This document shows, piece by piece, positions 1,721 through 36,866 of a stretch of 64,000 bases of DNA. A model generated the notes under the pieces. It was not told the DNA's origin. It made no database searches and saw only the letters and a list, made by a program, of their open reading frames with translations. The stretch lies in assembly GCA_963665665.1 (NCBI GenBank), contig OY762428.1:3013200-3077199 (forward strand), given 5' to 3'. The position numbers and the translations under genes are program-made. Each line of letters opens with the position of its first letter. Positions within the stretch are counted from its first letter, which is position 1. The stretch is from Candidatus Kapaibacterium sp. (lineage in GTDB: Bacteria; Bacteroidota; Ignavibacteria; Kapaibacteriales; UBA2268).

Positions 1721-1795
1721 TCCTGGATTTTTAAACATCTGACATGTTTTCCTTTTATGCTGAGTTGTTACTCTTTTCATTACGAATAAAAACAA

Positions 1796-1830
1796 AAAAG
1801 CTCCGAAAATCGGAGCTTTTTAAAATATTT
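1796..1830. terminator. Bidirectional rho-independent terminator between convergent genes
   Basis: aaaaaagctccgaaaatcggagcttttt: GC stem gctccga/tcggagc flanked by A-tract and T-tract. Confidence 0.6.
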
Positions 1831-1847
1831 TATTCTAACCGGAATTC

Positions 1848-2252: not shown

Positions 2253-2595
2253 TAAAAAACTGAATTACTAAAATATGGACAAAAGCTTAATTTTCAAAAC
2301 ATTTTTTTTTATTTTTCAATTTGTACTATATTTTTTCATTCTTTCCTATCCGAAAATTCAAGTCGATGAAGTGTTGAAATTATTTTATTTTCTGTTTGGG
2401 AATTGAATTTAATCAGCCTTGAACATTTATAATTGTTGCAATACCGGGTATCCGGGGGTGTAATGATGTTTTAAGATTTTTTTAGTAATTACTGCCAATG
2501 AGAAATTGCCAGTTTTGTTTCTTTTTTTGTAAATTTAAGAATAAATTGAAATTGACGAGAGAAATATTAATTTTAAATATATCGGGGCGCTCAAA

Positions 2596-5367
2596 ATGAA
2601 CAATAAAAGGAAACTTTTCCACACACTATTAGCATTTGCTATTATATTGAATATTATTCCGGGCTATGCCGCTGAAAAAAAGAAATTTAATTTTGAAGAT
2701 GTCCTGAAATTCAGGGCTATTGAAAATGCGAAACTATCGGAGGACGGCGACTGGCTGATATATAATACCGCTCCCGACATTGGGAATAAGGAAATGGTTG
2801 TTAAGAAAATAATGGATTCCACCATTGATTTTCATGTTGAAAGAGCATCCAATCCAATAATATCAACAAATAATAAGTGGGTTGCAGCAAAATATAATCC
2901 TGATTTTATCAAGCTTGCCAACTCTGCAAAGGGCAAGGCACCCAAAAGCGGAATGCTGCTGTTGAACACTTCCACCGGGGAACAAATTATTAAAAAAGAC
3001 ATAGCTTCATTTGAATTTTCCGGCAATTCTGAATGGCTTATCTACAGCCCCTATCCTGATAAAAACGACAAAGAGGAAGCCCCTGAAAAATATAAGATGA
3101 AGAAGATAGGATCTGAACTTGTTATGCATCACCTTGGAAGTGGTACGGAAATAATTATTCCAGGCGTAACAGAGTATTATGCAGACAGTTCATCAACTTT
3201 TATTTTCTATGCAAGATCAGAAAGAAATGCTGATTCCGATGGTATTTATTACCGTAGCCTGAAAGAAGGATATTGCCCCGAAAGGCCGATACAAAAAATG
3301 GAAAATCATCTTTTTTCCAATCTAACATGGAATAACGCCACGGGCAGGCTGGCATATCTTTCGGCAGGGCTTCAGGATGACGGCAAACCATATAAAGCCT
3401 CGCTCTGGTTCTGGGATTCAAATGAAAAATCAATTATATCTGCAATTACTATGAGCGGCGTAGGGGAGGGCAATTATATTCCTTCAAAAAATAAACTGGC
3501 ATGGTCCGAGGACGGCGGAATTATTTTTGTTGGTACGAAACCGGATGCAGAAAGATACCAGGATGATGAAACCAAAATTATATTCAATAAAGAAAATATT
3601 CTTAATCCTGACAGCATTACTGCTTCGGCTGACCTTGATATCTGGCACAATAACGACCCGTTGATAAAAACAAATGAAAAGAAAACCTGGCCCGGGAAAA
3701 GGGACAGGTTCTATTATGGTGTTTATCATGTTGGTGATTCCCGGTTCGTTCAGCTTGCAGCGCCTGATATGTCGGAAATAATCACAACGGATAATCATAA
3801 TTATACTATTGGTTTTGCAGATGCTCCATACCTGAAGGAGATACAGTGGGACGGTTGGTACAGGGATTTATACCTTGTAAACCTGAAAACAGGAAACAGA
3901 AAATTATTAGAGAAAAGAATATATGACCACGCTTCAATTTCGCCGCTTGGAAAATTCGTGGCTTATTATAATGATAAACAATGGTTCCTTTACGATGTTG
4001 CAAAGGATTCACTCTTGAATATTACAGAATCCATTGGCCTTCCGTTTCATGATGTTGACTGGGACATTCCGGCACCCGCGCCATCTTATGGTTTTCTTGG
4101 GTGGTTCGAAAACGATGATGCTTTTTGTGTTTACGACAAATTTGACCCCTGGATGTTTCTCACCGGAGACGGGTATAGTAAATTTTGTATGACTTTGGGC
4201 GAAGGAAGAGATATTGGGGCTAAGTTCCGCGTTATCAAAACCAGGAAAAACAGGAAGTTTATTTCTTCAAAGGACAGCCTCTATCTTGAAGCATTTAGTG
4301 AAAAAAATAAATGGCAGGGGATTTATATTCATGAAACATGGATTCAGGGAATCAAGGAATATATTCGCGATCCGAATTATCAGTTTAACCTGCTGGAAAA
4401 GGTGGAAAACAGGGACAGATTTTTATATACTCGTGAATCTTACGATGAATTCCCTGACCTGTGGATAGGCGACGGTGAATTCGACCGCCTGACACGAGTA
4501 AGCAATTTGGATAAACAACTTGAACCTTTTTCCTGGGGGAAGGCTGAACTTACTTCGTGGAAAAACGGAAGAGGCCAGGACTTGCAGGGAGTTATTATCA
4601 AGCCGGACAATTTCGAAGAGGGAAAAAAATACCCGGTATTGATTTACTTCTATGAAAGATTTTCCGACAGGCTGCATCAGTTTGTTATGCCGAGGATAAA
4701 CCACAGGCCATGCTACCCGTTATATGTCAGCGATGATTATATAATGCTGTTGCCGGATATTAAGTATGTTTCCGGAGATCCGGGAACCGACGCAACCGAT
4801 GCACTTGTCAGGGGAGCGCAGCATTTAATTGATATGGGAATCGCAGATCCGGACAAAATTGCCATACAGGGGCACTCATGGGGCGGATATGAATCTGCTT
4901 ACATTGTTACCAGAACCAATATGTTTGCGGCATGTTGCACGGGAGCTCCTGTTGGGAACATGACAAGCGCTTACAGCGGTATCAGGCTGGGGACAGGCTT
5001 GAGCAGGCAATTCCAGTACGAGAAATGGCAAAGCCGAATCGGGGGCAATCTCTGGGATTCACTTGATAATTATATTCGGAACTCACCTGTGTTCCAGGCC
5101 AGGACAATGAATACGCCAATGCTGATCATGTTTGGCGACAATGACGAAGCTGTGCCATGGGAACAGGGTATAGAACTTTATCTTGCTTTTCGCAGACTTG
5201 ATAAAAATGCCCTGATGCTGCAATATAGAAATGAGCCGCATCACCCGAAAAAGATGAGGAACAAACTTGATTATGCTATTAAAATGAAAGAATTTTTTGA
5301 TCATTACCTGAAAAATACAAAAATGCCTGAATGGATGGAAAAAGGGATTCCCTACAGGGGTGAATAA
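2596..5367 (+). CDS. S9 family serine peptidase (prolyl oligopeptidase/dipeptidyl-peptidase-like), secreted
   Basis: N-terminal signal peptide, long beta-propeller-like N-domain, C-terminal alpha/beta-hydrolase with nucleophile elbow GHSWGGY and downstream Asp/His. Confidence 0.75.
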   Translation: MNNKRKLFHTLLAFAIILNIIPGYAAEKKKFNFEDVLKFRAIENAKLSEDGDWLIYNTAPDIGNKEMVVKKIMDSTIDFHVERASNPIISTNNKWVAAKYNPDFIKLANSAKGKAPKSGMLLLNTSTGEQIIKKDIASFEFSGNSEWLIYSPYPDKNDKEEAPEKYKMKKIGSELVMHHLGSGTEIIIPGVTEYYADSSSTFIFYARSERNADSDGIYYRSLKEGYCPERPIQKMENHLFSNLTWNNATGRLAYLSAGLQDDGKPYKASLWFWDSNEKSIISAITMSGVGEGNYIPSKNKLAWSEDGGIIFVGTKPDAERYQDDETKIIFNKENILNPDSITASADLDIWHNNDPLIKTNEKKTWPGKRDRFYYGVYHVGDSRFVQLAAPDMSEIITTDNHNYTIGFADAPYLKEIQWDGWYRDLYLVNLKTGNRKLLEKRIYDHASISPLGKFVAYYNDKQWFLYDVAKDSLLNITESIGLPFHDVDWDIPAPAPSYGFLGWFENDDAFCVYDKFDPWMFLTGDGYSKFCMTLGEGRDIGAKFRVIKTRKNRKFISSKDSLYLEAFSEKNKWQGIYIHETWIQGIKEYIRDPNYQFNLLEKVENRDRFLYTRESYDEFPDLWIGDGEFDRLTRVSNLDKQLEPFSWGKAELTSWKNGRGQDLQGVIIKPDNFEEGKKYPVLIYFYERFSDRLHQFVMPRINHRPCYPLYVSDDYIMLLPDIKYVSGDPGTDATDALVRGAQHLIDMGIADPDKIAIQGHSWGGYESAYIVTRTNMFAACCTGAPVGNMTSAYSGIRLGTGLSRQFQYEKWQSRIGGNLWDSLDNYIRNSPVFQARTMNTPMLIMFGDNDEAVPWEQGIELYLAFRRLDKNALMLQYRNEPHHPKKMRNKLDYAIKMKEFFDHYLKNTKMPEWMEKGIPYRGE

Positions 5368-5469
5368 TTTCAGGTAACCGATATTTGTGCAAATTGCCAG
5401 GCAACATTAATTTTTTAAAAAAAGCAATGATAGCCGGATCTAAGAACAATTTGCCATGGGCATTTTTCA

Positions 5470-5512
5470 AAAAAAAACCTTCCGAAGTGTATAATTCTTC
5501 GGAAGGTTTTTA
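5470..5512. terminator. Bidirectional rho-independent terminator (S9 peptidase / ispD convergent pair)
   Basis: aaaaaaaaccttccgaagtgtataattcttcggaaggttttt: 10-bp perfect stem with flanking A/T runs. Confidence 0.7.
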
Positions 5513-5539
5513 AATCTTAATAACTATTTCAGGCAGAAA

Positions 5540-6268
5540 TTATATCGAAGTTTCGTAACCGGCATCTTTCATTTTCTGGTCACGCGCTTCTTTAATAAGA
5601 ACTTCTGCAATGTGCCTGTCCATGGGTGTTGTAATTTTCAGGTTATTATCATCGCCGTCAATTACCTGTACTTTATAGCTCATGAATTCTACAAGTGATG
5701 CACTGTCAGTACCGATAAATCCTGCTTTGGTTGCATTCACATAAGCATTGTAAATAAGTTCCTGCCAGAATCCCTGCGGAGTTTGTACCATTTTCAGGTA
5801 TTCGCGGCGCATTGTTTTTAGAACAGTACCCTGCTTTGTAACTTCCTTGATAGTTTCCTTTGGAGATAGTGCCGGAATAACGGCTCCGAATTCTTCTGTT
5901 TGTTCAATGATTTTCTTTACGAGTGCCGGAGTGGCAAGAGGCCTGACAGCATCGTGTATAAGAACGATATCGGATGATTCTGCCGAGGCTGTTTCCAGGC
6001 CGTTTAGTACTGAGTGCTGCCTTGTTTCGCCGCCTTCAATTATTTCCCTGACTTTTGTAAGCTTGTACTTAATTGCCATTTCCCGCATTTTATTAATGTA
6101 TTCCTCATGAACCGGCAAAACAACATGTTCCACTTCAGGGCACATTTCAAATATCCTGATAGTATGAACAATTACTGGAGCGCCGTCAATTTCGATGAAC
6201 TGTTTGGGAATGTCTGCCCCAAACCTGCTGCCGACGCCTGCTGCCGGTATTATCACACTTGTTTTCAT
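5540..6268 (-). CDS. ispD: 2-C-methyl-D-erythritol 4-phosphate cytidylyltransferase
   Basis: N-terminal IIPAAGVGSRFG...PKQF, central HDAVRP, C-terminal KITTPMD. These are typical IspD signature blocks at typical length. Confidence 0.9.
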   Translation of the reverse strand: MKTSVIIPAAGVGSRFGADIPKQFIEIDGAPVIVHTIRIFEMCPEVEHVVLPVHEEYINKMREMAIKYKLTKVREIIEGGETRQHSVLNGLETASAESSDIVLIHDAVRPLATPALVKKIIEQTEEFGAVIPALSPKETIKEVTKQGTVLKTMRREYLKMVQTPQGFWQELIYNAYVNATKAGFIGTDSASLVEFMSYKVQVIDGDDNNLKITTPMDRHIAEVLIKEARDQKMKDAGYETSI

Positions 6269-6284
6269 TTTTCTCCTTTACAAA

Positions 6285-7595
6285 TCATGGTTGATATTTA
6301 TATTTTTCCGTTACTGTCATTGGCCTTGCCAGCCTGAAATCCCCGAATCCGGTATTGTCCACGAAAATAAATTCCCTGTTTTGCTGGTAAATCCATTTTT
6401 CATAAGTTCTTCCGTCTCCGTATCCTGAATATCTCTCGCTTTGCAATGGTTTTCCGAATATTACAAAAACCATTCCCTTATCTGTCATCCATCCTTCCGT
6501 GTAAGCTTTAAAGCTGTTATTAGCATATTCAATCCTGGAATAAAACTGCTCGAAAGCTTCGTTCTTTTCCGTACCGGGGCTTGGATCAAGTTTTTTCCAA
6601 AAAGATTCGAACCTGGATTGCTTTTCATCTATGTCAGCGGCTTCTTCAATAAAGTCAATATCATCGCTGTATGCAACATAGCGCAATTGTTTAATAGCTT
6701 TTTCCAGGTCGTTCATAACCATTAAGCCAACTGTTCTTATAACTTTAATCGACCGTCTGGCAACTGCCGCCGCAATTAGGGAGTCAGGGTTTAAAGTATC
6801 GCTTCTGCGATAAGCAGTCAGCTGCAGGGTATAAGCTCCCATTTTTAATTTATTTGTATTTTCAATCCTGACAAATTCCCTGTTTACCCCTTTTTCCAGA
6901 TTGAAAGGCTTGCTTTCTCCTTCCTGAATTATCATATCATCGGTGTTTAGTATCTGGTATTTTATTTCAATATTTTCTGCCTGCATGCGGTTATACACTT
7001 CAAAGAAGGCAAAGAATCCGCTTTCCAGGTCTCCAATATTATCATTGGGATGTGGGGTGATTACATATCTGTCATTTTTCTTTTCGATGGAACTTACAAT
7101 CAGGATGCCGCTCATTGACAGATCATAAACATCAAAATCCAAAACAGAAATGGTGCGGGAACGGCTGTAGTCTTTTCCGGCACTAAGGTCGCTCATTTCA
7201 CATTTTATTTTGTAAGTACCAACAGGCAGCTCAAAAATTGTTTGTGAATAATCAAACTCGGCATTTCCACCCTGGCTTTTGTCATAACTGTCGAGTTTCA
7301 TTCCTCCCTTAATATGCTTTGAATCAACAATGGAACCGTCATCATTGAAAACAGCAATGTTCATATCATATCTTGCACCGTATATATTGCCAGATTTGAC
7401 AAAACGAAGTGATTTTGCGGGCACAATAGTATAAACGTCCACCCTGGCCTTGCCGGGTTCTTCCGAATCAAACACCACTGCATCGAAAAAAAATGCCCGG
7501 ACATCTTTTTGTTTAAGATTGTCCCGGGCAATTATATCGTTTGCCGTGGTAAAAAGTAATGCTATTATTAGTAATTTAACTTTCAGTTTATCCAT
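6285..7595 (-). CDS. GWxTD domain-containing secreted protein
   Basis: Signal peptide; C-terminal block YTEGWMTDKGMVFVIFGKP matches the GWxTD motif of Bacteroidota-type GWxTD proteins. Confidence 0.6.
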   Translation of the reverse strand: MDKLKVKLLIIALLFTTANDIIARDNLKQKDVRAFFFDAVVFDSEEPGKARVDVYTIVPAKSLRFVKSGNIYGARYDMNIAVFNDDGSIVDSKHIKGGMKLDSYDKSQGGNAEFDYSQTIFELPVGTYKIKCEMSDLSAGKDYSRSRTISVLDFDVYDLSMSGILIVSSIEKKNDRYVITPHPNDNIGDLESGFFAFFEVYNRMQAENIEIKYQILNTDDMIIQEGESKPFNLEKGVNREFVRIENTNKLKMGAYTLQLTAYRRSDTLNPDSLIAAAVARRSIKVIRTVGLMVMNDLEKAIKQLRYVAYSDDIDFIEEAADIDEKQSRFESFWKKLDPSPGTEKNEAFEQFYSRIEYANNSFKAYTEGWMTDKGMVFVIFGKPLQSERYSGYGDGRTYEKWIYQQNREFIFVDNTGFGDFRLARPMTVTEKYKYQP

Positions 7596-7690
7596 CTGTT
7601 TTCCGTTTTTGCATTTACGAAACCTGTAAAATTAACAATACTCTGTTAATTATCTGTTATTTTGACGCATTTTTTTTCAAATTGTTGAAA

Positions 7691-8449
7691 TTAATTTTTA
7701 AAAACAGAATAAATCACCAATCCGCTCATTAATTCTTTAATATCATCTCTAAGTTTTTTTATATCATTCTTTCTTGTGAAAACAGAAGCCTGAATTGTTC
7801 CGAAATATCCTGAAACATAATAATTGACATATACCATCGGCCCTGATTTTAAGGTGGCTTCCATTTCTACGGCAAGCATTTTTATTCCGTTTACCCATAT
7901 TTCTTCTTCTTTGGTAAATTTGGTATCCGGGGCTGCCATTTTGTAATTTTCCAGAGCCTGGTTCTTCAGGCTGTCCAGGGATATTCTGTTTTTATTAAAA
8001 ATTGTCAGGCCGAAAGCTGATTTGGCTTTATTTAAAAATTTCAGGTCAACCTCGGGATTAGGGCTTTGCCCGTCATTTACATCCCATTTGTCAAGGTTTA
8101 TCCATAATCCGTAGGGGCCTTTTTTACTTTCCAGCAGGAAATCAGAACTTGCCGGTTTGGAAACAATAGTAGCAGTGCTGTCTGTCGGGGTAAAATATCC
8201 CCATGTGCTATCCGGATACAGGATAAGCATTTCTCCGGACTTCAGAAGAACAGTGTCGGCTTCAGGAATTACCGACCATGTGTTGTCGGTTCTTAAAAGT
8301 GCTTTTTTGCCGTTTTTAAGTGGTATTATTCTTTCCTGCGATATTGTTCCCGAAGTGATTAAGAAAAGGCTGAAAATCAAAACCAAGATTGTTTTATTCA
8401 AATTTAAAGTTTGTATCATAATGATTTCATGATGGAAATTTAACAACAC
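7691..8449 (-). CDS. Hypothetical secreted/lipoprotein-like protein
   Basis: Complete ORF with N-terminal hydrophobic signal sequence; no recognisable catalytic motif. Confidence 0.4.
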   Translation of the reverse strand: MLLNFHHEIIMIQTLNLNKTILVLIFSLFLITSGTISQERIIPLKNGKKALLRTDNTWSVIPEADTVLLKSGEMLILYPDSTWGYFTPTDSTATIVSKPASSDFLLESKKGPYGLWINLDKWDVNDGQSPNPEVDLKFLNKAKSAFGLTIFNKNRISLDSLKNQALENYKMAAPDTKFTKEEEIWVNGIKMLAVEMEATLKSGPMVYVNYYVSGYFGTIQASVFTRKNDIKKLRDDIKELMSGLVIYSVFKN

Positions 8450-8634
8450 GAATTTTGCAATTTAATTTATTTTTTTGGTTTTTCCTTTTCTTCTCTATAT
8501 TTTATTGCATATTTGCATTTAAAGCCATATTTTTGGCTGGCAAAGTGAACAAACCGCTACGAACAAATATTATCGCTCGGCAATATAGATTTTAACTCTT
8601 TAACATATATTTTAATTATCCCCGAGGTGTAATT

Positions 8635-10902
8635 ATGATCTTTGATCTTGATATGATTAAAGCCCACTACGCGAATTTTGCCGACAAAGTGAATAAAGCA
8701 CGCGACGTGGTTGGCAGGCCGATGACGCTTGCCGAGAAAATTCTTTATGCTCATTTATTCGATCAGAATGAATTAAAAAGCTTCAAAAGAGGCGAAGACT
8801 ATGTTAACTTTCACCCGGACAGGGTAGCGATGCAGGATGCAACCGCGCAGATGGCGCTCCTGCAATTTATGCAGGCTGGCAGGCCCCGGGCTGCAGTACC
8901 TTCCACAGTGCATTGCGACCACCTGATACAGGCTAAGGTTGGAGCTGAAACCGACCTGGCAGTAGCAAAAGATACAAATAAGGAAGTATATGATTTCCTC
9001 TCATCAGTATCAAATAAATATGGTATCGGATTCTGGAAACCCGGCGCAGGTATTATCCACCAGGTAGTGCTCGAAAACTATGCTTTCCCCGGCGGAATGA
9101 TGATCGGCACAGATTCGCACACTGTTAATGCCGGCGGCCTGGGAATGGTGGCAATCGGCGTTGGCGGAGCAGATGCTGTTGACGTAATGGCAGGTATGCC
9201 CTGGGAATTGAAATTCCCCAAACTTATCGGCGTGAAACTTACCGGTAAGATGAGCGGCTGGACTTCTGCAAAGGACGTTATACTTAAAGTTGCAGGAATC
9301 CTAACCGTTAAAGGCGGTACCGGAGCAATTGTAGAATATTTCGGGCCGGGAGCTGAATCAATTTCCTGTACGGGCAAAGGTACAATATGCAATATGGGCG
9401 CCGAAATCGGAGCTACAACCTCTACATTTGGTTTTGATGACAAGATGTATGATTATCTTGCTGCAACAGGCCGAAAAGAAGTTGCCGATATGGCGAGGGA
9501 AATCGGCTCGTATCTTACAGGCGACGATGAAGTTTATGCTCATCCGGATGATTATTTCGATGAATTGATCGAGATAAACCTTTCTGAACTTGAGCCTCAT
9601 ATCAATGGGCCGTTTACACCCGACCTTGCTACTCCGATATCAAAATTTGCAGAAGCAGTAAAAGAAAATGACTGGCCGGAAAAACTTGAAGTAGGGCTAA
9701 TCGGTTCCTGTACTAACTCATCCTACGAGGATATTTCTCGTGCTGCCTCGCTTGCACAGCAGGCAGTAGATAAAAACCTGAAAGTAAAATCAGAATATAC
9801 TATCACTCCGGGTTCCGAACTGGTTCGCTACACAATCGAACGCGACGGATTTATAAATATATTTGAAAAAATTGGCGGAGTGGTTCTGGCAAATGCCTGC
9901 GGCCCCTGCATTGGACAATGGGCAAGGCATGGCGCCGATAAAAAAGAAAAAAATGCAATTATAACATCATTCAACAGGAACTTTGCCAAGAGAAATGACG
10001 GCAACCCGAATACACACGGATTCGTGGCTTCGCCCGAAATGGTTACTGCCATGGCAATAAGCGGTAGTATGCTGTTTAATCCCATGACTGATAAACTAAT
10101 GAATGAAAACGGCGAAGAAGTTATGCTGGACGAGCCGACAGGCGAAGAACTCCCCGCAAAGGGATTCGATGTTGAAGATCCGGGATACCAGGCTCCTGCA
10201 GATGACGGCAGTGGTATTGAAGTTGTTGTTAGTCCGGAATCCGAGCGTCTTCAGATTCTTACTCCGTTTGCCCCATGGGACGGAAAGGACTATACCGGCC
10301 TGAAACTATTGATTAAAGCTTTCGGAAAATGCACAACTGACCATATTTCAATGGCCGGCCCCTGGCTAAGGTTCCGCGGCCATCTGGATAATATTTCCAA
10401 TAATATGCTTACCGGTGCTGTTAATGCATTCAACAAGGAAACAAACAAGGTTAAAAACCAGCTTTCCGGCGGGTACGGTGGTGTTCCTGATGTACAGAGG
10501 GAATATAAAGCTGATGGTATTGCATCCATAGTTGTTGGCGATGAAAACTACGGCGAGGGTTCCTCACGTGAGCATGCCGCCATGGAACCAAGGCATCTTG
10601 GGGTGAAAGTTGTTCTGGTGAAATCATTTGCAAGAATTCACGAAACAAACCTTAAAAAACAGGGTATGCTTGGAATTACTTTCGAAAACAAGGACGATTA
10701 TGATAAAATCCTCGAAGACGATACTATTGATATTAAAGGCCTTGCAGAATTTGCTCCGGGTAAACAGTTAACTGTTGTGCTTCATCATAAGGATGGCAGC
10801 GTGGAGGAATTCCAGGTTAACCATACATATAACCAGTACCAGATAGAATGGTTTAAAGCAGGTTCGGCGCTGAATCTTATTCGTAAGCAATTCGGCGGCT
10901 GA
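8635..10902 (+). CDS. acn: Aconitate hydratase (about 750-aa mitochondrial-type family)
   Basis: Aconitase Fe-S ligand motifs GTDSHT and [11 protein letters not shown], and ...[10 protein letters not shown]; 755 aa. Confidence 0.9.
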
Positions 10903-10930
10903 TTCTCAAAACAGTTCTAATATATAATTA

Positions 10931-10970
10931 CATCGTCCGGTGATCTTATTTCGCCGGACGATTTTTGTTT
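10931..10970 (+). terminator. Rho-independent terminator after aconitase
   Basis: catcgtccggtgatcttatttcgccggacgatttttgttt: stem cgtccgg/ccggacg followed by a T-run. Confidence 0.6.
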
Positions 10971-11110
10971 GTTAATTTCTGTTGAAATTAAATGATGTTA
11001 CAGGAATAAGATATCATTACTCTGAAAAAACATTATGAGAATAATGGCGTAAATTAACATGTCGGATTTATTAATAATTGTTACTGTATCAATAAATCTG
11101 AACAATAAAA

Positions 11111-11190
11111 TATTATCATGCCTGACCTCCCCAAACCCCTCTCCTTCGGGGAAGTTGCCACACCTCGTGTGTTTGGGAGGTGTCAGAAGC
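11111..11190. repeat. Left boundary repeat of the repeat island (about 40 bp, near-identical copy at 14318-14390)
   Basis: ctctccttcggggaagttgccacacctcgtgtgtttgggaggtg recurs at 14340-14385 with 2-3 mismatches. It contains the hairpin cctccccaaac...gtttgggagg. Confidence 0.6.
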
Positions 11191-11199
11191 TAAGCACCA

Positions 11200-12615
11200 A
11201 TGTTCGAAGATATTTCCGCCCTGGTCGGAAGCAAAGAAAGAAAACCACCCCTGTATTCCCCTCCTCCGCGAGGAGGGGATAAGAAGTTAAATATCATAGA
11301 ATTAACTCCTCATCCTTCCGAAGGAGGTGGCCGGGGGGAGGTAGGAAGGTTCGGAAGCAAAGCACCAATGTTCGAACCTATTGCAGCCTTATTCTTCTTC
11401 AAAGCCCGCCCCTTCGGGGAGGGTTTGGGAGGGGTCAGGAATATTGCAGCAATGTTTTGCTTTATTGCTGCCTTGTTCGGAGTCATTGCCGCCCTGGTCG
11501 GAAGCAAAGCAAGAAAACCACCCCTATATTCCCCTCCTACTTTAGGAGGGGATAAGAAGTTAAATATCATAGAATTAACTCCTCATCCTTCCGAAGGAGG
11601 TGGCCGGGGGGAGGTAGGAAGGTTCGGAAGCAAAGCACCAATGTTCGAACCTATTGCAGCCTTATTCTTCTTCAAAGCCCGCCCCTTCGGGGAGGGTTTG
11701 GGAGGGGTCAGGAATATTGCAGCAATGTTTTGCTTTATTGCTGCCTTGGTCGGAGTCATTGCCGCCTTGTTCCGAAGCAAAGCAAGAAAACCACCCCTAT
11801 ATTCCCCTCCTACTTTAGGAGGGGATAAGAAGTTAAATATCATAGAATTAACTCCTCATCCTTCCGAAGGAGGTGGCCGGGGGGAGGTAGGAAGGTTCGG
11901 AAGCAAAGCACCAATGTTCGAACCTATTGCAGCCTTATTCTTCTTCAAAGCCCGCCCCTTCGGGGAGGGTTTGGGAGGGGTCAGGAATATTGCAGCAATG
12001 TTTTGCTTTATTGCTGCCTTGGTCGGAGTCATTTCCGCCTTGTTCCGAAGCAAAGCAAGAAAACCACCCCTGTATTCCCCTCCTCTGCGAGGAGGGGATA
12101 AGAAGTTAAATATCATAGAATTAACTCCCCCTTCTTCCGAAGGATGTGCCCGGGGGGAGGTAGGAAGGTTCGGAAGCAAAGCACCAAAGTTTGATGATAT
12201 TGCCGCCCTGGTCGGAAGCAAAGCAAGAAAACCACCCCTGTATTCCCCTCCTCCGCGAGGAGAGGATAAGAAGTTAAATATCATAGAATTAACTCCCCCT
12301 CCTTCCGAAGGAGGGGGGCGGGGGGAGGTAGGAAGAGTCTATGGTAATGCACCGATGTTCGAACCCATTGCCTCCTTATTTTCCATCAAAGCCCTCTCCT
12401 TCGGGGAGGGTTTGGGAGGGGTCAGAGTCATTGACGCCTTGGTCGGAGTCATTGCCGCCTTGTTCCGAAGCAAAGCAAGAAAACCACCCCTATATTCCCC
12501 TCCTACTTTAGGAGGGGATAAGAAGTTAAATATCATAGAATTAACTCCCCCTCCTTCCGAAGGATGTGCCCGGGGTGAAGTAGGAAGGGTCGAAAGCAAA
12601 GAACAAATGTTCTAA
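11200..12615. repeat. Tandem array of about five 273-bp units (one shortened to 180 bp), GC-rich, each unit carrying three UUCG/GCG-loop hairpins
   Basis: Units begin near 11241, 11514, 11787, 12060 (180-bp variant), 12240 and 12480 with over 90 percent identity. Per-unit hairpins are cccctcctc-cgc-gaggagggg, ccttc-cgaagg and cccc-ttcg-gggg. There are no stops in several frames on both strands, as expected for stop-free repeats. Confidence 0.8.
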
Positions 12616-12794
12616 GTCATTGCCGCCTTGTTTGAAGATAATGAACTCTTGGTCGACACTATTGCAGCAATGTTTTGCTTTATTGATGCCTTGTTCGAAG
12701 CTATTGCAGCAATGTTTTGCTTTATTGCTGCCTTGGTTGAAGATAATGAACTCTTGGTTGAAGCTATTGCAGCAATGTTTTGCTTTATTGCTGT

Positions 12795-12975
12795 CTTGGT
12801 CGGAGTCATTGACGCCTTGTTCGGAGTTATTGCTGCCTTGTTCAGAGTCATTGCTGCCTTGTTCAGAGTTATTGCTGCCTTGTTCGGAGTTATTGCTGCC
12901 TTGTTCAGAGTCATTGCTGCCTTGTTCAGAGTTATTGCTGCCTTGTTCGGAGTTATTGCTGCCTTGTTTGAAGAT
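12795..12975. repeat. 21-bp microsatellite array A (about 8-9 copies of attgctgccttgttcRgagtY)
   Basis: Direct visual periodicity. The motif derives from a segment of the 273-bp unit (gtcattgccgccttgttccgaagc). Confidence 0.75.
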
Positions 12976-12982
12976 AATGAGT

Positions 12983-13290
12983 AACCTCAATAAGGTCAAA
13001 CAAGTCCTCAATAAGGCTAAACAAGTCCTCAGTAAGGCTAAACAAGTCCTCAGTAAAGTCAAACAAGTCCTCAGTAAAGTCAAACAAGTCCTCAGTAAAG
13101 TCAAACAAGTCCTCAATAAAGTCAAACAAGACCTCAGTAAGGCCAAACAAGACCTCAGTAAGGCCAAACAAGACCTCAATAAGGTCAAACAAGACCTCAG
13201 TAAGGCCAAACAAGACCTCAATAAGGTCAAACAAGACCTCAGTAAGGCCAAACAAGACCTCAATAAGGCTAAACAAGTCCTCAATGAAGC
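12983..13290. repeat. 21-bp microsatellite array B (about 15 copies of aaacaagWcctcaRtaaggYc)
   Basis: Direct visual periodicity. One + frame reads a perfect heptad (KQVLSKA/KQDLSKA) up to a stop at 13321. Confidence 0.75.
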
Positions 13291-13518
13291 CAAATTTCAC
13301 TACATTAAGGCCAAACAGTAGTTCAATACCACCGGCCAGGGCAGTTTAAAGCTTTACCAATAAAGCAATTAGCCCAAACATTTGGATTCTGGTTCAAAAC
13401 AGCGTTGAAGTAAGGGAATTATCCGGTTCATTGAAACCACAGGATAGGGAATTAAGTCCGGCGGCCTGTTCATTTGGGTGGAAGAACGGGTAAACTGAGC
13501 AAAAGAATGAGGTGTTAT

Positions 13519-13653
13519 GTTGTCATTCCCCGACACGTCACCGAAAAATCGGTGCAGGCAGGGGCAGGCTTCCGGAGCTTGCGACTGAAGAATCCATCTT
13601 TCTTGCGGATAATTTATGAAGAATGGATCCTTCGCTTCGCTCAGGATGACATG
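13519..13653. repeat. Dispersed palindromic element copy B
   Basis: tgtcattcc...gagcttgcgactgaagaatccatc...ttatgaagaatggatccttcgcttcgctcaggatgacat: nested inverted repeats. Confidence 0.6.
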
Positions 13654-13952
13654 CAGTTTTACCATCGTCAAGTTCAATAGCCACGTGCTTTAGCTCGTGG
13701 ATAAAGATGCAAGGTGCGGAGGCAAAGAAAAAGAATCCACCCCGACTCGCTGCGCTTGCCACCCCTCAACTGGAGGGGAATTATTTAAGAATCCACCCCG
13801 CCCTTCGGGGAACAGTGAGCTAATGTCCCCCTCAACGAGGGGGTGGCCGTTAGGCCGGGGGAGGATTCTTCGATTTGTAATTATTAGTTTATCAATTAGG
13901 AAGTCCACCCCCGTCCTTCGGACACCCCCGCCAGCGGGGGACATTCCCATCC

Positions 13953-14030
13953 GTCATTCTGAATGAGCTTGCGACTGAAGAATCCATCTTCGTTTGCAGA
14001 TAGTGTGTGAAGAATCCACCCCTGCCTGTC
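13953..14030. repeat. Dispersed palindromic element, partial copy E
   Basis: gtcattctgaatgagcttgcgactgaagaatccatcttcg...gaagaatcca: left half only, then diverges. Confidence 0.45.
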
Positions 14031-14460
14031 CCGACGTGTCGGGAACTCGCTGCACTCGCCACCCCTCAACGAGGGGAATTTTAAGAATCCACCCCCGCCC
14101 TTCGGGCACTCGTCCTAAATTAGGAGGGGATAAGAAATTAAATATCATAGAATTAACTCCTCATCCTTCCAAAGGAGGTGGCCGGGGGGAGGTAGGAAGG
14201 GTCGGAAGCAAAGCACCGATGTTCTAAGTCATTGCCGACTTATTCTTCTTCAAAGCCATCCCCTTCGGGGAGGGTTTGGGAGGGGTCGAAAGCAATGCAC
14301 TGATGTTTTAAGCCATTGCCGCCTTATTCTTCTTCAAAGCCCTCTCCTTTGGGGAAGTTGCCACACCGCGTGTGTTTGGGAGGGGTCGTCAACTGAATTG
14401 TAATAATCAATAACTGCGACTTTACAAATTACGTGGATTCCGGTTTCAAAAATCATAAAA

Positions 14461-14497
14461 AAAGCCCCTTCAATATCAAATCAAAGGGGCTGGCTCG
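14461..14497 (-). terminator. Rho-independent terminator downstream of the cyclophilin gene (minus strand)
   Basis: aaaaaaagccccttcaatatcaaatcaaaggggctgg: stem gcccctt/aaggggc with a T-run on the minus strand. Confidence 0.55.
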
Positions 14498-14512
14498 TAA
14501 TTAAATTTCTAA

Positions 14513-15028
14513 TTAATCATTTAGCTTGACAACTTTCATTTCAATTTTATCAAGTGGTCCGTCCATGCGGTCGCGCGGGGAGTTTACGATTTTATCAGCA
14601 ACATCCATACCTTCGGTTACCTGGCCGAAAACTGTATATTGCCTGTCCAAGTGCGGAGAGTCCTGAACCATAATAAAGAACTGAGAAGTAGCGCTGTTAA
14701 TATCATTTCCTTTTCTTGCAGTTGAAAGGATGCCGCGTTTATGGGAAATGTCGCTGAATTCAGCAGGAACGGTTTTCTGGCCCGGGGCGCCCATGCCCCA
14801 TGTATTCCTGGGTTTATCTTTAGAATTCGGGTCGCCGCCCTGGATCATGAATCCGGGTATTACCCTGTGAAATGCTGTTCCGTCGTAGGAGCCTTCTTTA
14901 ACCAGGTTCTCAAAATTCGCGCAATGCTTAGGAGCAACATCCGGCCAGAGTTCCAAAATTATCTTACCCATTTCCTCACCATTCTGGCTTGCTGTCATTT
15001 CGTATTTCGGTTTATTTGTATTTTCCAT
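14513..15028 (-). CDS. ppiB: Peptidyl-prolyl cis-trans isomerase, cyclophilin type (cytoplasmic paralog)
   Basis: FHRVIPGFMIQGGDP plus downstream cyclophilin blocks (SMAN-like GKDINSATSQFFI); no signal peptide. Confidence 0.85.
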   Translation of the reverse strand: MENTNKPKYEMTASQNGEEMGKIILELWPDVAPKHCANFENLVKEGSYDGTAFHRVIPGFMIQGGDPNSKDKPRNTWGMGAPGQKTVPAEFSDISHKRGILSTARKGNDINSATSQFFIMVQDSPHLDRQYTVFGQVTEGMDVADKIVNSPRDRMDGPLDKIEMKVVKLND

Positions 15029-15038
15029 TTATCTTCCG

Positions 15039-15671
15039 TTAATCATTTAATTTAACAATTTTCATTTCAATTTTATCAAGAGGACCGTTTTTCTTATCAA
15101 CTCGTGAGTTAACTACTTTATCAGCAACGTCCATTCCACTCAGCACATGTCCGAAAACAGTATATTGTCTGTCTAAGTGCGGGGAATCTTCAACCATAAT
15201 AAAGAACTGCGAAGTTGCACTGTTTATGTCTCCGCCTTTCCTTGCAGTTGAAAGAATACCGCGTTTATGGGAAATATCGCTGAACTCAGCCGGTACTGTT
15301 TTCTGGCTCGGGTCACCCATTCCCCAGGTATTTCTTGGTTTATTTTTAGAGTTGGGGTCGCCTCCCTGAATCATAAACCCCGGTATTACCCTGTGGAATG
15401 CCGTACCATCGTAAAATCCAGTTTTAACAAGATTATCAAAGTTTGCGCAATGCTTTGGAGCTACATTCGGCCACAATTCCAGTACAATCTTTCCAAGTTC
15501 TTTTCCCTTTTGGGTAACAGTAATCTCATATTTCGGGTTTGTAGATTTTTCTATTGATTTTTCTGCTACTTTCTTTTCTTCCTTCTTTGTTGCTGTTTCT
15601 GTTGATGAGCAGGAAATCATTGTTATTGCCAGCAGCATTGCAAGCGCACTACCCATAAATTTCTTTAACAT
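15039..15671 (-). CDS. Peptidyl-prolyl cis-trans isomerase, cyclophilin type, lipoprotein paralog
   Basis: Same cyclophilin core (FHRVIPGFMIQGGDP). N-terminal signal with lipobox-like ...MISCSS. GGAGG Shine-Dalgarno 6 nt upstream of the ATG at 15671 (the ORF-track start at 15704 is less likely). Confidence 0.8.
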   Translation of the reverse strand: MLKKFMGSALAMLLAITMISCSSTETATKKEEKKVAEKSIEKSTNPKYEITVTQKGKELGKIVLELWPNVAPKHCANFDNLVKTGFYDGTAFHRVIPGFMIQGGDPNSKNKPRNTWGMGDPSQKTVPAEFSDISHKRGILSTARKGGDINSATSQFFIMVEDSPHLDRQYTVFGHVLSGMDVADKVVNSRVDKKNGPLDKIEMKIVKLND

Positions 15672-15693
15672 ATTTGCCTCCAATTCTAATAAA

Positions 15694-16398
15694 TTATTTA
15701 ACAAGTTCTTTCACTTCCACAGAAAATATTTTTATCGGTTCTTTCGGACAACCGTCGTCATCGCCTCGATCTGACGGTTCTACGTCAACGGCTCCGATAG
15801 CCTCGACAACATCCATCCCGGATATAACGTTTCCGAATATCGTATATTTTGGTTTAAGCCTTTTGGCTTCTTTCATGCAGATAAAAAACTGGCTTGTATT
15901 GGTATTCGGCCCTGCATTTGCCATCCCCACAATACCCTCGCGATAGCCGTAACGGTAAATTACATTCGTAGAATCAATTTCATCCTCGAATTCACCGTCG
16001 TAAATACTTTCGCCGCCTTCGCCCCATTCTGATTTCATACTTTTAAACCGGGTGTTACCGTCGCCTGACTGAATTACAAAACCATGCGCCACACGATGAA
16101 AAAGAATACCGTTGAAATACATTCTTTTCGAAAGTTGCACAAAATTTTCAACAGTTCGGGGAGCCTGGTTTCCGAATAACCCAATAACAATTGTTCCCAT
16201 GCTTGTCTTAATTTCTGCCTTGTGGGTATATTCCGGCAAATCATTTTTCGAAATACTATCAGATTTAACTTCCTGAGCTAAATTATTGATGGCAGAAATA
16301 TTATCGGCTTCTTTTTTACCTTCGGCCTTTGAGCCTTCAAGGCATGAACTAAGCATGATAAAACTTAAAACGAATAAAATTGTAAGTAAAGATTTCAT
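15694..16398 (-). CDS. Peptidyl-prolyl cis-trans isomerase, cyclophilin type, secreted paralog (divergent)
   Basis: FHRVAHGFVIQSGDGN core; signal peptide with LSSC lipobox; longer N-terminal extension. Confidence 0.75.
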   Translation of the reverse strand: MKSLLTILFVLSFIMLSSCLEGSKAEGKKEADNISAINNLAQEVKSDSISKNDLPEYTHKAEIKTSMGTIVIGLFGNQAPRTVENFVQLSKRMYFNGILFHRVAHGFVIQSGDGNTRFKSMKSEWGEGGESIYDGEFEDEIDSTNVIYRYGYREGIVGMANAGPNTNTSQFFICMKEAKRLKPKYTIFGNVISGMDVVEAIGAVDVEPSDRGDDDGCPKEPIKIFSVEVKELVK

Positions 16399-21379: not shown

Positions 21380-21512
21380 GATGATATTATACTGTTTTGA
21401 AAAGAACAATTGTAAAATTGTCATTCTGATGGAGCGAAGCGACTGAAGAATCCACTTGTTTTAGGATAAAATTATGAAAAATGGACTCTTCGCTATTGTT
21501 CAGAGTGACATT
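21369..21512. repeat. Dispersed palindromic element copy C (overlaps last codons and stop of the DAHP synthase gene)
   Basis: tactcagctaagatgatattatactgttttgaaaagaacaattgtaaaattgtcattctgatggagcgaagcgactgaagaatcca...atggactcttcgct...cagagtgacat. Confidence 0.65.
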
Positions 21513-36723: not shown

Positions 36724-36866
36724 TACTCAGGTTGGTAAAATATATTGCTGTTATTGAAGAAAAATACAGAGAAATGTCATTCTGACCGAGCTAGCGAGGG
36801 AAGAATCCATCTTTTTCTTAAAGAATTATTGAAGAATGGATTCTTCGCTGGCGCTCAGAATGACCG
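36724..36866. repeat. Dispersed palindromic element copy D
   Basis: tactcag...gaaatgtcattctgaccgagctagcgagggaagaatccatc...ttgaagaatggattcttcgctggcgctcagaatgac. Confidence 0.6.

Follow-up and report, generated by a model that had tools for sequence, protein, structure and literature searches.

The locus considered here poses the question of whether a GC-rich tandem array, lying between genes and open in one frame for 471 codons, is a satellite, an array of structured non-coding RNAs or the gene of an unusual repeat protein, the three candidates put forward in the initial annotation. Our analysis favoured the satellite, since the copy number differs between strains and the array shares a 21-bp lattice with the 21-bp arrays adjacent to it. 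We consider it probable that the 273-bp array arose when one module of a lineage-specific, non-coding mosaic repeat element of 2–3 kb was amplified in the manner of a minisatellite (VNTR). The window (the whole 64,000-nt stretch of DNA that was analysed) almost certainly belongs to a 5.46-Mb genome with four other ORFs of the same family.

The array lies in a gap of 3.6 kb (10903-14512; previously given as 3.5 kb and described as gene-free) between the aconitase gene (plus strand) on the left and the first of three cyclophilin genes (minus strand) on the right. The gap extends from terminator to terminator:

10932-10962, plus strand: intrinsic terminator of aconitase, left boundary of the gap, a 12-bp stem followed by a T run
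14463-14491, minus strand: intrinsic terminator belonging to the cyclophilin operon, which bounds the gap on the right

The ten neighbouring genes that were scanned were housekeeping genes, and ARAGORN detected no tRNA-like gene in the gap. A blastn search of 11100-13330 against plasmids and phages gave no match, and thus no indication that the DNA derives from a plasmid or phage.

TRF detected a tandem array with a period of 273 bp (3.6 copies, 96% identity, 11212-12191) followed by shorter units, and the whole could be divided into six units in a common register:

11212-12618, plus strand: the array proper (part B), six in-register units with a total of 1407 bp (67 × 21)
11212-11484, plus strand: unit 1, 273 bp
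11485-11757, plus strand: unit 2, 273 bp
11758-12030, plus strand: unit 3, 273 bp
12031-12198, plus strand: unit 4, 168 bp
12199-12450, plus strand: unit 5, 252 bp
12451-12618, plus strand: unit 6, 168 bp

The tandem 273-bp array had thus been recognized correctly, together with its GC content (0.49–0.53 in the array vs 0.39 in the whole window) and with unit lengths that are all multiples of three. Beyond this, each length is a multiple of 21, and a unit of exactly 180 bp, as had been reported, was not found. The ATTGC-type 21-mers between 11464 and 12955 all start (20/20) at a coordinate equal to 19 modulo 21. The array does not end at 12615 as had been proposed; its 21-bp register continues unbroken into further 21-bp arrays as far as 13294, and a diverged partial unit follows beyond these at 14113-14334. 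The core 33-mer of the units occurred seven times in the window, with none expected.

Each of the longer units carries two kinds of GC-rich module, which are located in the first unit as follows:

11232-11352, plus strand: composite double-palindrome module, the best-conserved part of the family
11400-11436, plus strand: half module, in which hairpin 3 (GCCCGCCCC-ttcg-GGGGAGGG) overlaps the G-quadruplex motif GGGGAGGGTTTGGGAGGGG at 11416-11434

In the composite module, a C-rich tail (CCACCCC) precedes hairpin 1 (11258-11278); the AT-rich middle that comes next measures 33 nt (GGATAAGAAGTTAAATATCATAGAATTAACTCC) and is followed by hairpin 2 and, finally, by a G-rich tail (GGGGGGAGG). Further copies were located at 11505-11625, 11778-11898, 12051-12171, 12219-12339, 12471-12591 and 14083-14203, and the G-quadruplex motif recurs at 11689, 11962, 12403 and 14267. 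The footprint of the composite module is exactly 126 bp (6 × 21) and that of the half module is 42 bp; such exact multiples of 21 bp are unexpected under random insertion, which counts against our preferred reading. Across 12 copies of the double-palindrome module the mean column identity was 88%, far above that of the rest of the element, with an invariant AT-rich middle. This conservation suggests a function, which also counts against a purely satellite-like origin, with gene conversion as an alternative cause.

The individual hairpins were less uniform than first described. The hairpin cccctcctc-cgc-gaggagggg, assigned to every unit, was present in unit 1 and, with one mismatch, in unit 5; unit 4 has the loop tgc, and units 2, 3 and 6 have the form cccctcctA-ctt-Taggagggg, which was also found in all five sister-strain copies. 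A perfect ccttc-cgaagg hairpin had likewise been reported, and unit 5 does contain a perfect 10-bp stem, but it is alone in this, as units 1–3 have a stem of 4–5 bp with a 3-nt loop. Hairpin 2 (helix 4) is disrupted at two positions in most copies and is broken in 6–7 of 11 distinct copies. The cccc-ttcg-gggg hairpin is a feature of the longer units and is absent from both 168-bp units. With regard to the GNRA/UUCG-type tetraloops, one loop (UUCG) is classical and there is no GNRA loop. The motif aggaggtg, described as common to all units, was confirmed for units 1–3 and the tail copy, with aggatgtg in units 4 and 6 and aggagggg in unit 5.

Its matches elsewhere show the half module to be a palindromic element of wide distribution, demonstrably present in other bacteria as single copies. 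Its 22-nt core identified an identical module on 31 metagenome contigs, one copy each, with an inverted partner on about a dozen of them. In other bacteria the half module (CCTTCGGGGAGGGTTTGGGAGG) is translated in frame (..FGEGLGGV..) within LeuRS genes; such palindromes can therefore pass through open reading frames. Nothing relevant emerged when the full-text literature was searched for the module sequences and for DUF559 together with LeuRS insertions. The membership of one of the array hairpins in a widespread module had escaped the first reading of the sequence, as had the membership of the array in a larger, multi-copy element.

On the evidence of the sequence, the array is one module of a composite element that spans 11132-14387 and is present in multiple copies; it does not stand alone. 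The element is ordered as B units, 21-bp array C, inverted 21-bp array D, unique segment E, palindromic element F and a GC-hairpin cluster, and its parts besides the array proper are as follows:

11132-11184, plus strand: left boundary module with a CTCC-ttcg-GGGG hairpin, a CACAC-ctc-GTGTG hairpin and the tail TTTGGGAGGTGTC
12619-12975, plus strand: part C, 17 units of 21 bp that continue the 21-bp register of B (consensus ATTGCTGCCTTGTTCGGAGTT)
12984-13294, plus strand: part D, 14.8 units of 21 bp, ACCTCAGTAAGGCCAAACAAG
13301-13490, unstranded: part E, unique segment (~190 nt), 77–90% conserved in all five sister-strain copies
13521-13651, unstranded: part F, palindromic dispersed element (TGTCATTC...GAAGAATCCA / TGGATYCTTC...CAGGATGACA)
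13705-14112, unstranded: part A, short GC-hairpin cluster (gaatCCACCCC..., CCCCTCaacGAGGGG...) with a second F-like fragment at 13952-14045
14113-14387, plus strand: part B', diverged partial unit, 69% identical to unit 1, which includes an 84-bp sub-repeat as well as the right boundary module

A copy of the boundary module with 92% identity closes the element at 14335-14387. The D units are inverted homologues of the C units, with a reverse complement (ACTGAGGACTTGTTTGGCCTT) that is about 60% identical to the C consensus. Part F is followed by a conserved segment (F', 13662-13704) and has other copies in the window at 21419-21510 and 36775-36866. Part B' contains stops in all six frames. The 21-bp lattice is kept through B, C, D and every family copy, with periods of 21, 42, 63, 84, 105, 126, 189 and 273 bp.

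The same architecture was found at four other intergenic loci of the sister strain (L112 to L115), with different flanking genes at each, in addition to the orthologous locus of that strain (L116). The element is thus multi-copy and always intergenic, with about five loci detected per genome, and the order and relative orientation of its parts are conserved at six loci. L113, like the window, is situated between convergent genes and contains no half module. Clusters homologous to part A flank the element in L112, L113, L115 and L116. F-type palindromes, which were considered as candidate terminal inverted repeats of a MITE, were observed on both sides of the B-C-D-E core in L115 and partly in L113 and L114, but not in the window or L112. 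Among the copies, no consistent ends or target-site duplications could be defined. An insertion sequence in L114 was considered as the mobilizer of the F elements and was rejected, its terminal repeats (TAATGGCACGAAG...) being unrelated. Downstream of aconitase, the element was not found in a relative with an 85% identical aconitase or in two relatives with 79–81% identity, and a 29-mer from the AT-rich core had no match in species-representative genomes or JGI metagenomes.

The flanks of L116 are 98.8% identical to the window over 10,150 nt, and the arrays differ in copy number: B comprises 1407 bp in the window vs about 498 bp in L116 (about 5 units vs 1.8), C comprises 17 units vs 14.3, and D comprises 14.8 units vs 12.8. 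The gains and losses between the strains are always multiples of 21 bp. The similarity stops at the right edge of the element, where synteny breaks, and B' is missing from the orthologous locus at this point. Head-to-tail repeats whose number differs at the same locus between close strains are characteristic of VNTRs and minisatellites.

The proposed origin of the array can be outlined as follows. The B units are built of 21-bp repeats and carry the 126-bp double palindrome and the 42-bp hairpin/G-tract half module. The mosaic would combine REP/BIME-like palindromes, one of them widespread, with 21-bp satellites. Units would be gained and lost on the 21-bp lattice, through unequal recombination in register or through slippage during replication, and the stable GC hairpins, which we take to be REP/REPIN/BIME-like palindromic modules, together with the G-quadruplex motif probably aid this change by stalling replication forks. 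Long open frames would arise as a by-product, because the repeat unit is poor in stops and its length is a multiple of three. No dedicated protein would be made, and the function, if any, would lie at the DNA level, where the element could act as a substrate for recombination, form a barrier to forks or supercoiling, or possibly offer a binding site for a protein in the gap between the two terminators.

A broader proposal is that B-C-D-E represents a previously undescribed class of chromosomal element, multi-kilobase, multi-copy and non-coding, whose fixed architecture is kept for a nucleoprotein structure or a long repeat RNA, the 21-bp lattice then being functionally constrained instead of resulting from recombination. 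That architecture comprises a double palindrome that hardly varies and has an AT-rich core, a pair of opposed 21-bp arrays with a conserved heptamer, and a conserved unique segment. We regard this proposal as unlikely, and its two possible products are weighed separately below.

Under the RNA alternative, the element would be transcribed, most plausibly on the minus strand from the E/F side, into a long non-coding repeat RNA whose GC hairpins and 21-nt units (core CUUGUUY) would either present a series of binding sites or form one long hairpin, similar to protein-sponge RNAs. In support of this, C and D pair in register to give a single long hairpin, for which the minus strand has the better z-score, both in the window (−5.1 to −6.0 vs −2.7 to −3.0 on the plus strand) and in L113 (−6.9 vs −5.0). 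This pairing, with minus-strand z-scores of −5 to −7, therefore leaves a structured minus-strand transcript some probability. The composite module forms an outer stem with three hairpins, and 93.6% of the cells were paired over 12 copies vs 45–63% in slid controls. Segment E is conserved and has no coding potential, and the constant order and orientation of the parts at six loci would also fit a transcript. However, the C/D hairpin is missing in L115 (z −0.6 and −2.3), and C and D show no co-variation by locus, so it was rejected as a conserved feature. A single B unit folded with z-scores of −2.4 and −2.6 on the two strands, and such modest, equal values are expected because DNA palindromes fold in this way. 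Across the highly similar copies, a compensatory double change was seen in only 1 of 33 base pairs, and the broken copies of hairpin 2 also weigh against a maintained structure. Segment E was rejected both as an RNA and as a coding N-terminus: its consensus fold is weak (2–3 covarying pairs and about −23 kcal/mol over the 190 nt), its stops are conserved, no frame is open across all copies, and its variation by codon phase (17:16:12) has no three-base periodicity. At the gathering score, Rfam yielded no match in the window or in the element copies of L112 to L115, where the cobalamin riboswitch of L115 served as a positive control; at E ≤ 1 there was only miRNA-type noise far below the threshold. 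The gap is flanked by terminators and contains only weak sigma-70-like promoter matches, and the TAnnTTTG motif, found 68 times across the window, is absent from it, although the promoter types of this lineage may differ. The structured-RNA candidate of the initial annotation accordingly found no positive support in the array, and we consider the longer transcript quite improbable.

Alternatively, the element could be a protein-binding DNA array in which a heptamer (CTTGTTY in C, RAACAAG in D) recurs every 21 bp, or two helical turns, in two opposed blocks and, together with the double palindrome, assembles a centromere-like or nucleoid-organizing nucleoprotein structure or a polar barrier. 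The strict lattice over B, C, D and all family copies would agree with this, as would the heptamer being the least variable part of the 21-bp units and the opposed orientation of C and D being conserved at all six loci. The AT-rich middle also contains TATCATAGAATTA, a predicted site that by eye is one mismatch away from WATCAANNNNTTR, which we take to be the IHF consensus, such sites presumably being comparable to those of the BIME-1/RIP elements of E. coli. In-register recombination alone would nevertheless suffice for a 21-bp lattice, the number of units varies freely between strains, and L113 manages without the half module. The housekeeping genes nearby include no candidate binding protein, and neither a skew switch nor a cluster of DnaA boxes was found. 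We therefore view a binding array as very doubtful.

The remaining alternative is a protein gene, represented by the following frame:

11200-12615, plus strand: open frame of 471 codons, judged not to be a gene

On this account the frame, continuing to 12984, would encode a hydrophobic heptad-repeat protein (IAALFxV) with palindromic modules inserted in frame, and D would be a paralogous, convergent gene on the minus strand. The frame is indeed open for 471 codons as claimed, unit lengths are multiples of three, and the half module is read in the same frame within real LeuRS genes. Gene callers called the frame in all assemblies, giving hypothetical proteins of 471 aa in the window and 233 aa in the sister strain, which counts against a non-coding reading. 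The claim that opposite-strand frames are equally open did not hold, the ORFs there being 86–142 aa and none as long as the array; the plus frame (+f1) and the minus frame with a common third position (−f2) are both nearly open in the array, a pattern also seen over real genes, and this too counts against a non-coding reading. Over D, the minus frame resembles genes in its codon usage (0.30) and is open at the five loci examined, but its putative N-terminus contains in-frame stops at four of five loci.

The pattern of variation pointed the other way. The variable columns among B units were distributed over the codon positions as 22:15:24, and synonymous and non-synonymous differences among units stood at 15:36 in the open frame and 11:37 in the opposite frame. 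The mean entropy per codon phase was 0.88/0.92/0.90 for 60 distinct C units (p = 0.49) and 0.73/0.76/0.84 for 52 distinct D units, so that none of the three arrays exhibited three-base periodicity. Units are distinguished by radical changes, one of them to a stop. One or more stops interrupt the frame both in the window and in all sister-strain copies examined, with two in the tail copy of the window and, in the worst case, one in each of about a dozen 42-bp repeats of L113; a stop-bearing 21-mer (ATGTTCTAAG) recurs in the window and at least in L113, L114 and L115, and hairpin 1 of L115 has a 1-nt deletion. The codon-usage score of the frame was 0.006, below that of every one of the 36 real genes in the window (0.26 ± 0.09, minimum 0.074; wrong frames −0.40 ± 0.17). 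Searches of six ORFs in the gap against Pfam and NCBIfam gave no match above the cut-off and only low-complexity coiled-coil noise below it, and when the 471-aa ORF or the minus-strand ORF of L113 served as query, word-indexed protein searches retrieved no relatives. An exhaustive HMMER scan of 1.84 billion representative proteins identified seven short ORFs as relatives, all from the same lineage. Given the closed frames, the outlying codon usage and the lack of periodicity and of family matches, the repeat-protein candidate is disfavoured and a gene here is highly improbable; both hypothetical-protein calls are probably spurious. Under a protein reading, the frames of the locus would yield the peptides KPPLYSPPTLGGDKK, FGEGLGGV/FGEGLGGVR and IEDLFSLIEVLFGL.

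A replication origin or terminus was rejected, as no global GC-skew switch was found and the gap has no DnaA-box cluster, and so was an integron attC array or a CRISPR, as the units are direct repeats without unique spacers or neighbouring integrase or cas genes.

The satellite reading can be compared with several known systems. The NIMEs of Neisseria and the pneumococcal BOX elements are modular intergenic arrays in which variable internal repeats are enclosed by conserved end modules, and which vary between strains and act as recombination sites. Variable repeat number within conserved ends, strain-dependent copy number and recombination sites are common ground with the present element, whereas the sequences are unrelated and NIME and BOX units are much smaller (20–150 bp, with a total of about 100–300 bp for BOX) and lack a 21-bp lattice. 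The MIRU-type VNTRs of mycobacteria, with units of 40–100 bp within operons, are likewise intergenic tandem repeats of strain-variable number, whose unit lengths keep short ORFs open although these are not conventional genes, but they have no palindromic modules or higher-order structure. Rickettsia palindromic elements are inserted in frame in genes, as the half module is in LeuRS genes; that case, however, concerns single modules in other organisms, and the modules of the window sit in a non-coding array.

Closer parallels are found among the REP families. The enterobacterial interspersed mosaic elements (BIMEs), which include the IHF-site-bearing BIME-1/RIP type (PMC2817692, PMC3333891), are also mosaics of GC-rich imperfect palindromes with defined linkers. 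Like BIMEs, the element is extragenic, lies past terminators at the 3′ ends of transcription units and between convergent genes, and has two palindromes with oppositely oriented tails around an AT-rich linker in a mosaic unit that is tandemly amplified. BIMEs space their REPs regularly, in strict alternation of orientation and with few kinds of linker, the long linker of BIME-1 bearing an IHF site; each unit here contains one inverted pair and one solo half module, and the units are direct repeats. The differences from BIMEs are a unit of 168–273 bp on a 21-bp satellite lattice, a total length of 2–3 kb that takes in a conserved unique segment as well as a pair of opposed 21-bp arrays, about five copies found per genome as against hundreds, and no GTAG/CGTC tag beside the palindromes. 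REPINs are mobilized by RAYT transposases (PMC3116915, PMC3337134), and the composite module is shaped like a REP doublet: its related, inverted palindromes (CCCCTCCT...AGGAGGGG, hairpins 1 and 2) stand about 33 nt apart around the AT-rich spacer, can pair with each other and are enclosed by an outer C-rich/G-rich stem. Unlike REPINs, no RAYT gene is known here, with none but housekeeping genes among the ten neighbours scanned, and the composite module occurs within a larger element with no dispersed singlets, all copies in the 64-kb window being confined to one gap. REPs are GC-rich imperfect palindromes of 20–40 bp that are dispersed in high copy number through extragenic space. A tetranucleotide, GTAG or CGTC, is conserved immediately at their 5′ end (PMC3733652). 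Neither was found at this position, where the arms begin with CCCCTCC, CCCCCTCC or GCCCTC, and the sole GTAG (GGAGGTAGGAAG) is situated 3′ of hairpin 2, at a distance of about 12 nt.

Bacterial genomes seldom tolerate kilobases of non-coding repeats, and here an element of 2–3 kb is kept in a fixed order at several loci. Its arrays change in length at 98.8% flank identity, and a break in gene order falls at the element. The locus therefore offers a case for studying how REP-like modules and simple satellites join into higher-order repeats, as well as repeat-driven rearrangement and persistence on a lattice of two helical turns, in a poorly known and apparently uncultured lineage related to Ignavibacteria and Calditrichia. 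The arrays could potentially also serve as a sensitive marker for strain typing.

The 273-bp period was recovered with Tandem Repeats Finder at 11212-12191 (3.6 copies, 96% matches) and was followed by shorter related units, in agreement with the tandem array of the initial annotation. In-register repeat finding placed the unit starts of this array (B, with units u1 to u6) at 11201/11212, 11474/11485, 11747/11758, 12020/12031, 12188/12199, and 12440/12451, spaced by 273, 273, 273, 168, and 252, and the six units were aligned with a diverged copy at 14063-14334. No unit had the reported length of exactly 180 bp; the lengths were multiples of three as described, and each was even a multiple of 21. 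The GC-rich character also held (49-53% in the array vs. 39% in the window), as did the position in a gene-free gap, the largest of the window (10903-14512), with aconitase on one side, three tandem cyclophilin genes on the other, a strong aconitase terminator at its start, and the cyclophilin-operon terminator at its end. The original observation is real, partly mis-described. The three cyclophilin-type peptidyl-prolyl isomerase genes occupy 14513-16398 on the minus strand, and two of them have N-terminal extensions resembling signal or lipoprotein sequences.

All 20 starts of the ATTGC-type 21-mers at 11464-12955 fell at a coordinate equal to 19 modulo 21; since all B unit lengths are likewise multiples of 21, B runs in register into array C. 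Together they belong to a composite element (11132-14387) with the following parts.

11132-11184 and again 14335-14387: boundary module of 53 nt, bracketing the whole region
11212-12618: array B
12619-12975: C, plain 21-bp array, in register with B
12984-13294: D, second 21-bp array, abutting C
Beyond D: E, unique stretch
Beyond D, with E and A: F, palindromic element, with copies also at 21419-21510 and 36775-36866
Beyond D, with E and F: A, cluster of short GC hairpins
14113-14334: B', diverged partial B unit after E, F, and A
11416, 11689, 11962, 12403, and 14267, plus strand: G-quadruplex sequence motif GGGGAGGGTTTGGGAGGGG

The D units are inverted homologues of the C units, with a consensus identity of ~60% inverted vs. 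38% direct. F belongs to a dispersed family of intergenic palindromic elements of ~95 nt (TGTCATTCTGA..GAGC..GCGA..GAAGAATCCA / TGGATTCTTCGC..GCTCAGAATGACA), with members at 13521-13651 and 13952-14045 as well as at the two distant sites, and in the sister strain this family flanks the repeat element and hosts nested insertions.

On the 21-bp grid, the 273-bp unit comprises five 21-mers (ATTGC or AAAGC type), a 126-bp block, and a 42-bp block. The 126-bp block, a double palindrome referred to as the composite module, contains a CCACCCC tail, hairpin 1, a 33-nt AT-rich middle, hairpin 2, and a GGGGGGAGG tail, in that order, with a predicted fold of an outer stem around three hairpins. The 42-bp half module consists of hairpin 3 and the tail GGTTTGGGAGGGGTC, and includes the 19-mer GGGGAGGGTTTGGGAGGGG, to which each of the five canonical G-quadruplex motifs in the 64-kb window corresponds, every one on the plus strand and in this gap. 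In the window's boundary modules and at one sister-strain locus (L114), the central loop of this motif contains an inserted CACAC-cgc-GTGTG hairpin. The three hairpins described for each unit are present, but not uniformly: hairpin 1 occurs in three versions with the cgc-loop form in the minority, hairpin 2 has a perfect 10-bp stem only in u5, and the UUCG hairpin is missing from both 168-bp units.

The 22-mer CCTTCGGGGAGGGTTTGGGAGG of the 42-bp block was found on 31 JGI metagenome contigs (31-66% GC) in one copy per contig, with the extended form AAGCCCTCYCCTTCGGGGAGGGTTTGGGAGGGG on about two dozen, a C-rich partner in inverted orientation some tens of nucleotides upstream on about a dozen, and in-frame translation within LeuRS genes in five cases. 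Given this distribution, hairpin 3 at least belongs to a palindromic module that is widespread and was not designed for array B. Its canonical form, with a fully paired stem, is the u5 version, and the G.A stem mismatch in u1-u3 suggests decay rather than maintenance. LeuRS genes on the metagenome contigs (L110, 37-2526; also L086, L096, L105, and L111) contain a DUF559-like endonuclease domain in frame (..RFSNDEVIKNKEGVLEKI..), with GC-hairpin modules translated on either side of it (HPSPALPEGEGE, ALSFGEGLGGV, SSPSGRLGGV), immediately ahead of the conserved VFTTRPDTIFG motif; a second module insertion lies further downstream. A full-text literature search returned nothing on these insertions.

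A word-indexed protein search with the repeat ORFs gave no match, being too insensitive for low-complexity repeat translations; when 1.84 billion representative proteins were scanned exhaustively with HMMER, seven short predicted proteins emerged, 66-81% identical to the 471-aa ORF, encoded in a single 5.46-Mb genome and on contigs of ENA assembly ERZ21869602. The window aconitase matches one on the 5.46-Mb contig at 100% identity and is almost identical to one on a contig of ERZ21869602, which very probably places the window in the 5.46-Mb genome and makes the ENA contigs those of a sister strain. Among relatives with a name, the nearest are MAGs that carry the labels Ignavibacteria, Kapabacteria, Calditrichaceae, or "FCB group". 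Paralogous elements were located at four sister-strain loci.

L112: after a glyoxalase gene
L113: between Lon and a convergent gene
L114: after SMC
L115: after TrkH

Despite differing neighbours, the order and relative orientation of composite-module units, C-type 21-mers, D-type 21-mers, E, and then F and A-type modules were kept, with repeat periods of 21, 42, 63, 84, 105, 126, and 189, all multiples of 21. The element is thus an intergenic mosaic present in multiple copies, and it is lineage-specific. No trace of it was found within 22 kb in a more distant relative (aconitase 85% identical), nor downstream of aconitase in two relatives at 79-81% aconitase identity. The D-unit variant was locus-specific with a conserved core (RAACAAG...CA.T.A.G), and E was 77-90% identical among loci. 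The composite module was the best-conserved part, its AT-rich middle being nearly invariant in 12 copies. The window has a tandem series of six composite modules and a further one in the tail copy, vs. one or two at the other loci, so that the long 273-bp array is a local amplification.

Several features were peculiar to individual loci. Between C and D, L112 (10800-11300) and L114 (10500-11000) share a conserved, extremely AT-rich spacer of ~500 bp that is missing from the window, L113, L115, and the orthologous locus L116. A small repeat, "G" (..CTCCTTCCCAAGTTGTACYTGGGAA..GCATTACGAAGTACAACTTCGTAAT..), lies within or beside F elements (L113 11510-11640; L115 11110-11230; L114 11455-11478 and 12991-13060), and at L114 an IS with a DDE_Tnp_1 transposase and terminal repeats TAATGGCACGAAGATAATGA is inserted into it. 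The elements at L112 and L115 lie upstream of Por_Secre_tail genes, and at L115 a cobalamin riboswitch (11308-11506; Rfam RF00174, 97 bits) precedes a Por_Secre_tail gene and a TonB-dependent receptor gene.

At the sister strain's aconitase locus (L116), window positions 1622-11769 aligned at 98.8% identity over 10,150 nt, and the arrays compared as follows.

B: window 1407 bp (about 5 unit equivalents); L116 1.8 units (about 498 bp)
C: window 17 units; L116 14.3 units
D: window 14.8 units; L116 12.8 units

The arrays change in 21-bp steps between near-identical strains, and this copy-number difference supports the satellite, one of the three candidates initially put forward. It also answers the check on copy-number variation between strains that the initial annotation had proposed. 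Similarity extended through E, F, and A and then ended; past the break, the window continues with B', the right boundary module, and the cyclophilins, and L116 with a Por_Secre_tail gene cluster. The element marks a synteny break and sits at a rearrangement boundary. The gene-order change falls at window 14390 / L116 14370, exactly at the element's right end, between strains with 98.8% identical flanks; five Por_Secre_tail/Sortilin-type genes lie beyond it in L116.

Gain and loss of units would proceed through unequal homologous recombination, or through replication slippage, acting on repeats aligned in the 21-bp register. Such a mechanism would account for periods that are always multiples of 21, and so of 3, and for the persistence of long open frames. 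The stable GC hairpins and the strong one-strand G-quadruplex motif are plausible fork-stalling sites favouring such gain and loss. The GC palindromes are similar in shape and position to REP/REPIN/BIME modules (PMC3116915, PMC2817692, PMC3333891), but they lack the GTAG/CGTC tag (PMC3733652) and, as far as visible, high copy number, and were therefore not filed as REPs.

Two further readings are kept alive by the exact 126- and 42-bp sizes of the composite and half modules and by the composite module being much better conserved than its surroundings: the 21-bp lattice (two helical turns) and double palindrome may serve protein binding, or the element may be transcribed. In the gap, no sigma-70-like site better than 9-10/12 was found in a sensible place, and TAnnTTTG, the Bacteroidota-type -7 motif whose use in this lineage is assumed, was absent from both strands of the 3.6-kb gap, with 68 occurrences in the window.

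Under the structured-RNA candidate, the structure proposed for the composite module was 93.6% paired in 12 copies vs. 45-63% with partners slid; both sides had changed in only 1/33 pairs, and Rfam gave no match at the gathering score or at E<=1 (positive control, the L115 riboswitch). The double change, A-U to C-G at the pair closing the loop of hairpin 1, came with two changes in the loop itself and so looks like a patch rather than independent mutations. In hairpin 2, two positions were unpaired in 6-7 of 11 distinct copies. A single B unit folded with z = -2.4 (plus) and -2.6 (minus), the near-equality expected of DNA palindromes. Paired in register, C and D can form one long hairpin of ~200 nt per arm centred on their junction at about 12980 (window 12780-13180; L113 10780-11180), with the more favourable score on the minus strand (z about -5 to -6 in the window, -6.9 in L113) and absent in L115 (z -0.6 and -2.3); no co-variation of C and D by locus was found.

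The plus frame was confirmed to be open for 471 codons (f1, 11200-12615), and it stands in the classic "shadow ORF" relation to the other nearly open frame, -f2, with a common third codon position. This relation counts in favour of coding, but is outweighed by several independent tests that speak against a repeat protein. Variable columns among the six B units were distributed 22:15:24 over f1 codon positions 1:2:3, without third-position bias. Synonymous:non-synonymous differences numbered 15:36 for f1 and 11:37 for the opposite frame, itself nearly open; among them were changes of G to Y, P to D, and E to stop. Frame-independent positional entropy per phase was 0.876, 0.922, and 0.902 for the C-type 21-mers (60 distinct, five loci; p=0.49) and 0.726, 0.755, and 0.842 for the D units (52 distinct; p=0.35), and E varied 17:16:12. 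In codon-usage log-odds trained on the window's 36 long ORFs, the ORF scored 0.006, below the real-gene minimum of 0.074 (real genes 0.26 +/- 0.09; wrong frames -0.40 +/- 0.17). At L113, ATGTTCTAAG places an f1 stop in each of about a dozen 42-bp repeats; this stop-bearing 21-mer subtype also occurs in the window (12606, 14222), L114, and L115, L112 and L116 have other in-frame f1 stops, and the window's tail copy has stops in all six frames. Across B, C, and D, no frame was open at every locus; over each simple array, four of six were open simply because the 21-mers contain no stop. A family search with the gap ORFs gave no match. The array is very probably not coding. A short minus-strand frame, M(F/L)GLIA(L/W)(L/I/F)..(L/F), lies at 13340-13380 and at the same place in L112, L114, and L115; its terminal TAA is conserved in 4/5 loci (TAT in L113) and followed by ATG, TTG, or CTG by locus. 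The segment showed no coding periodicity.

Taken together, the element is best classed as an intergenic mosaic of palindromic repeats / VNTR, and its size, fixed architecture, and 21-bp lattice are unusual.
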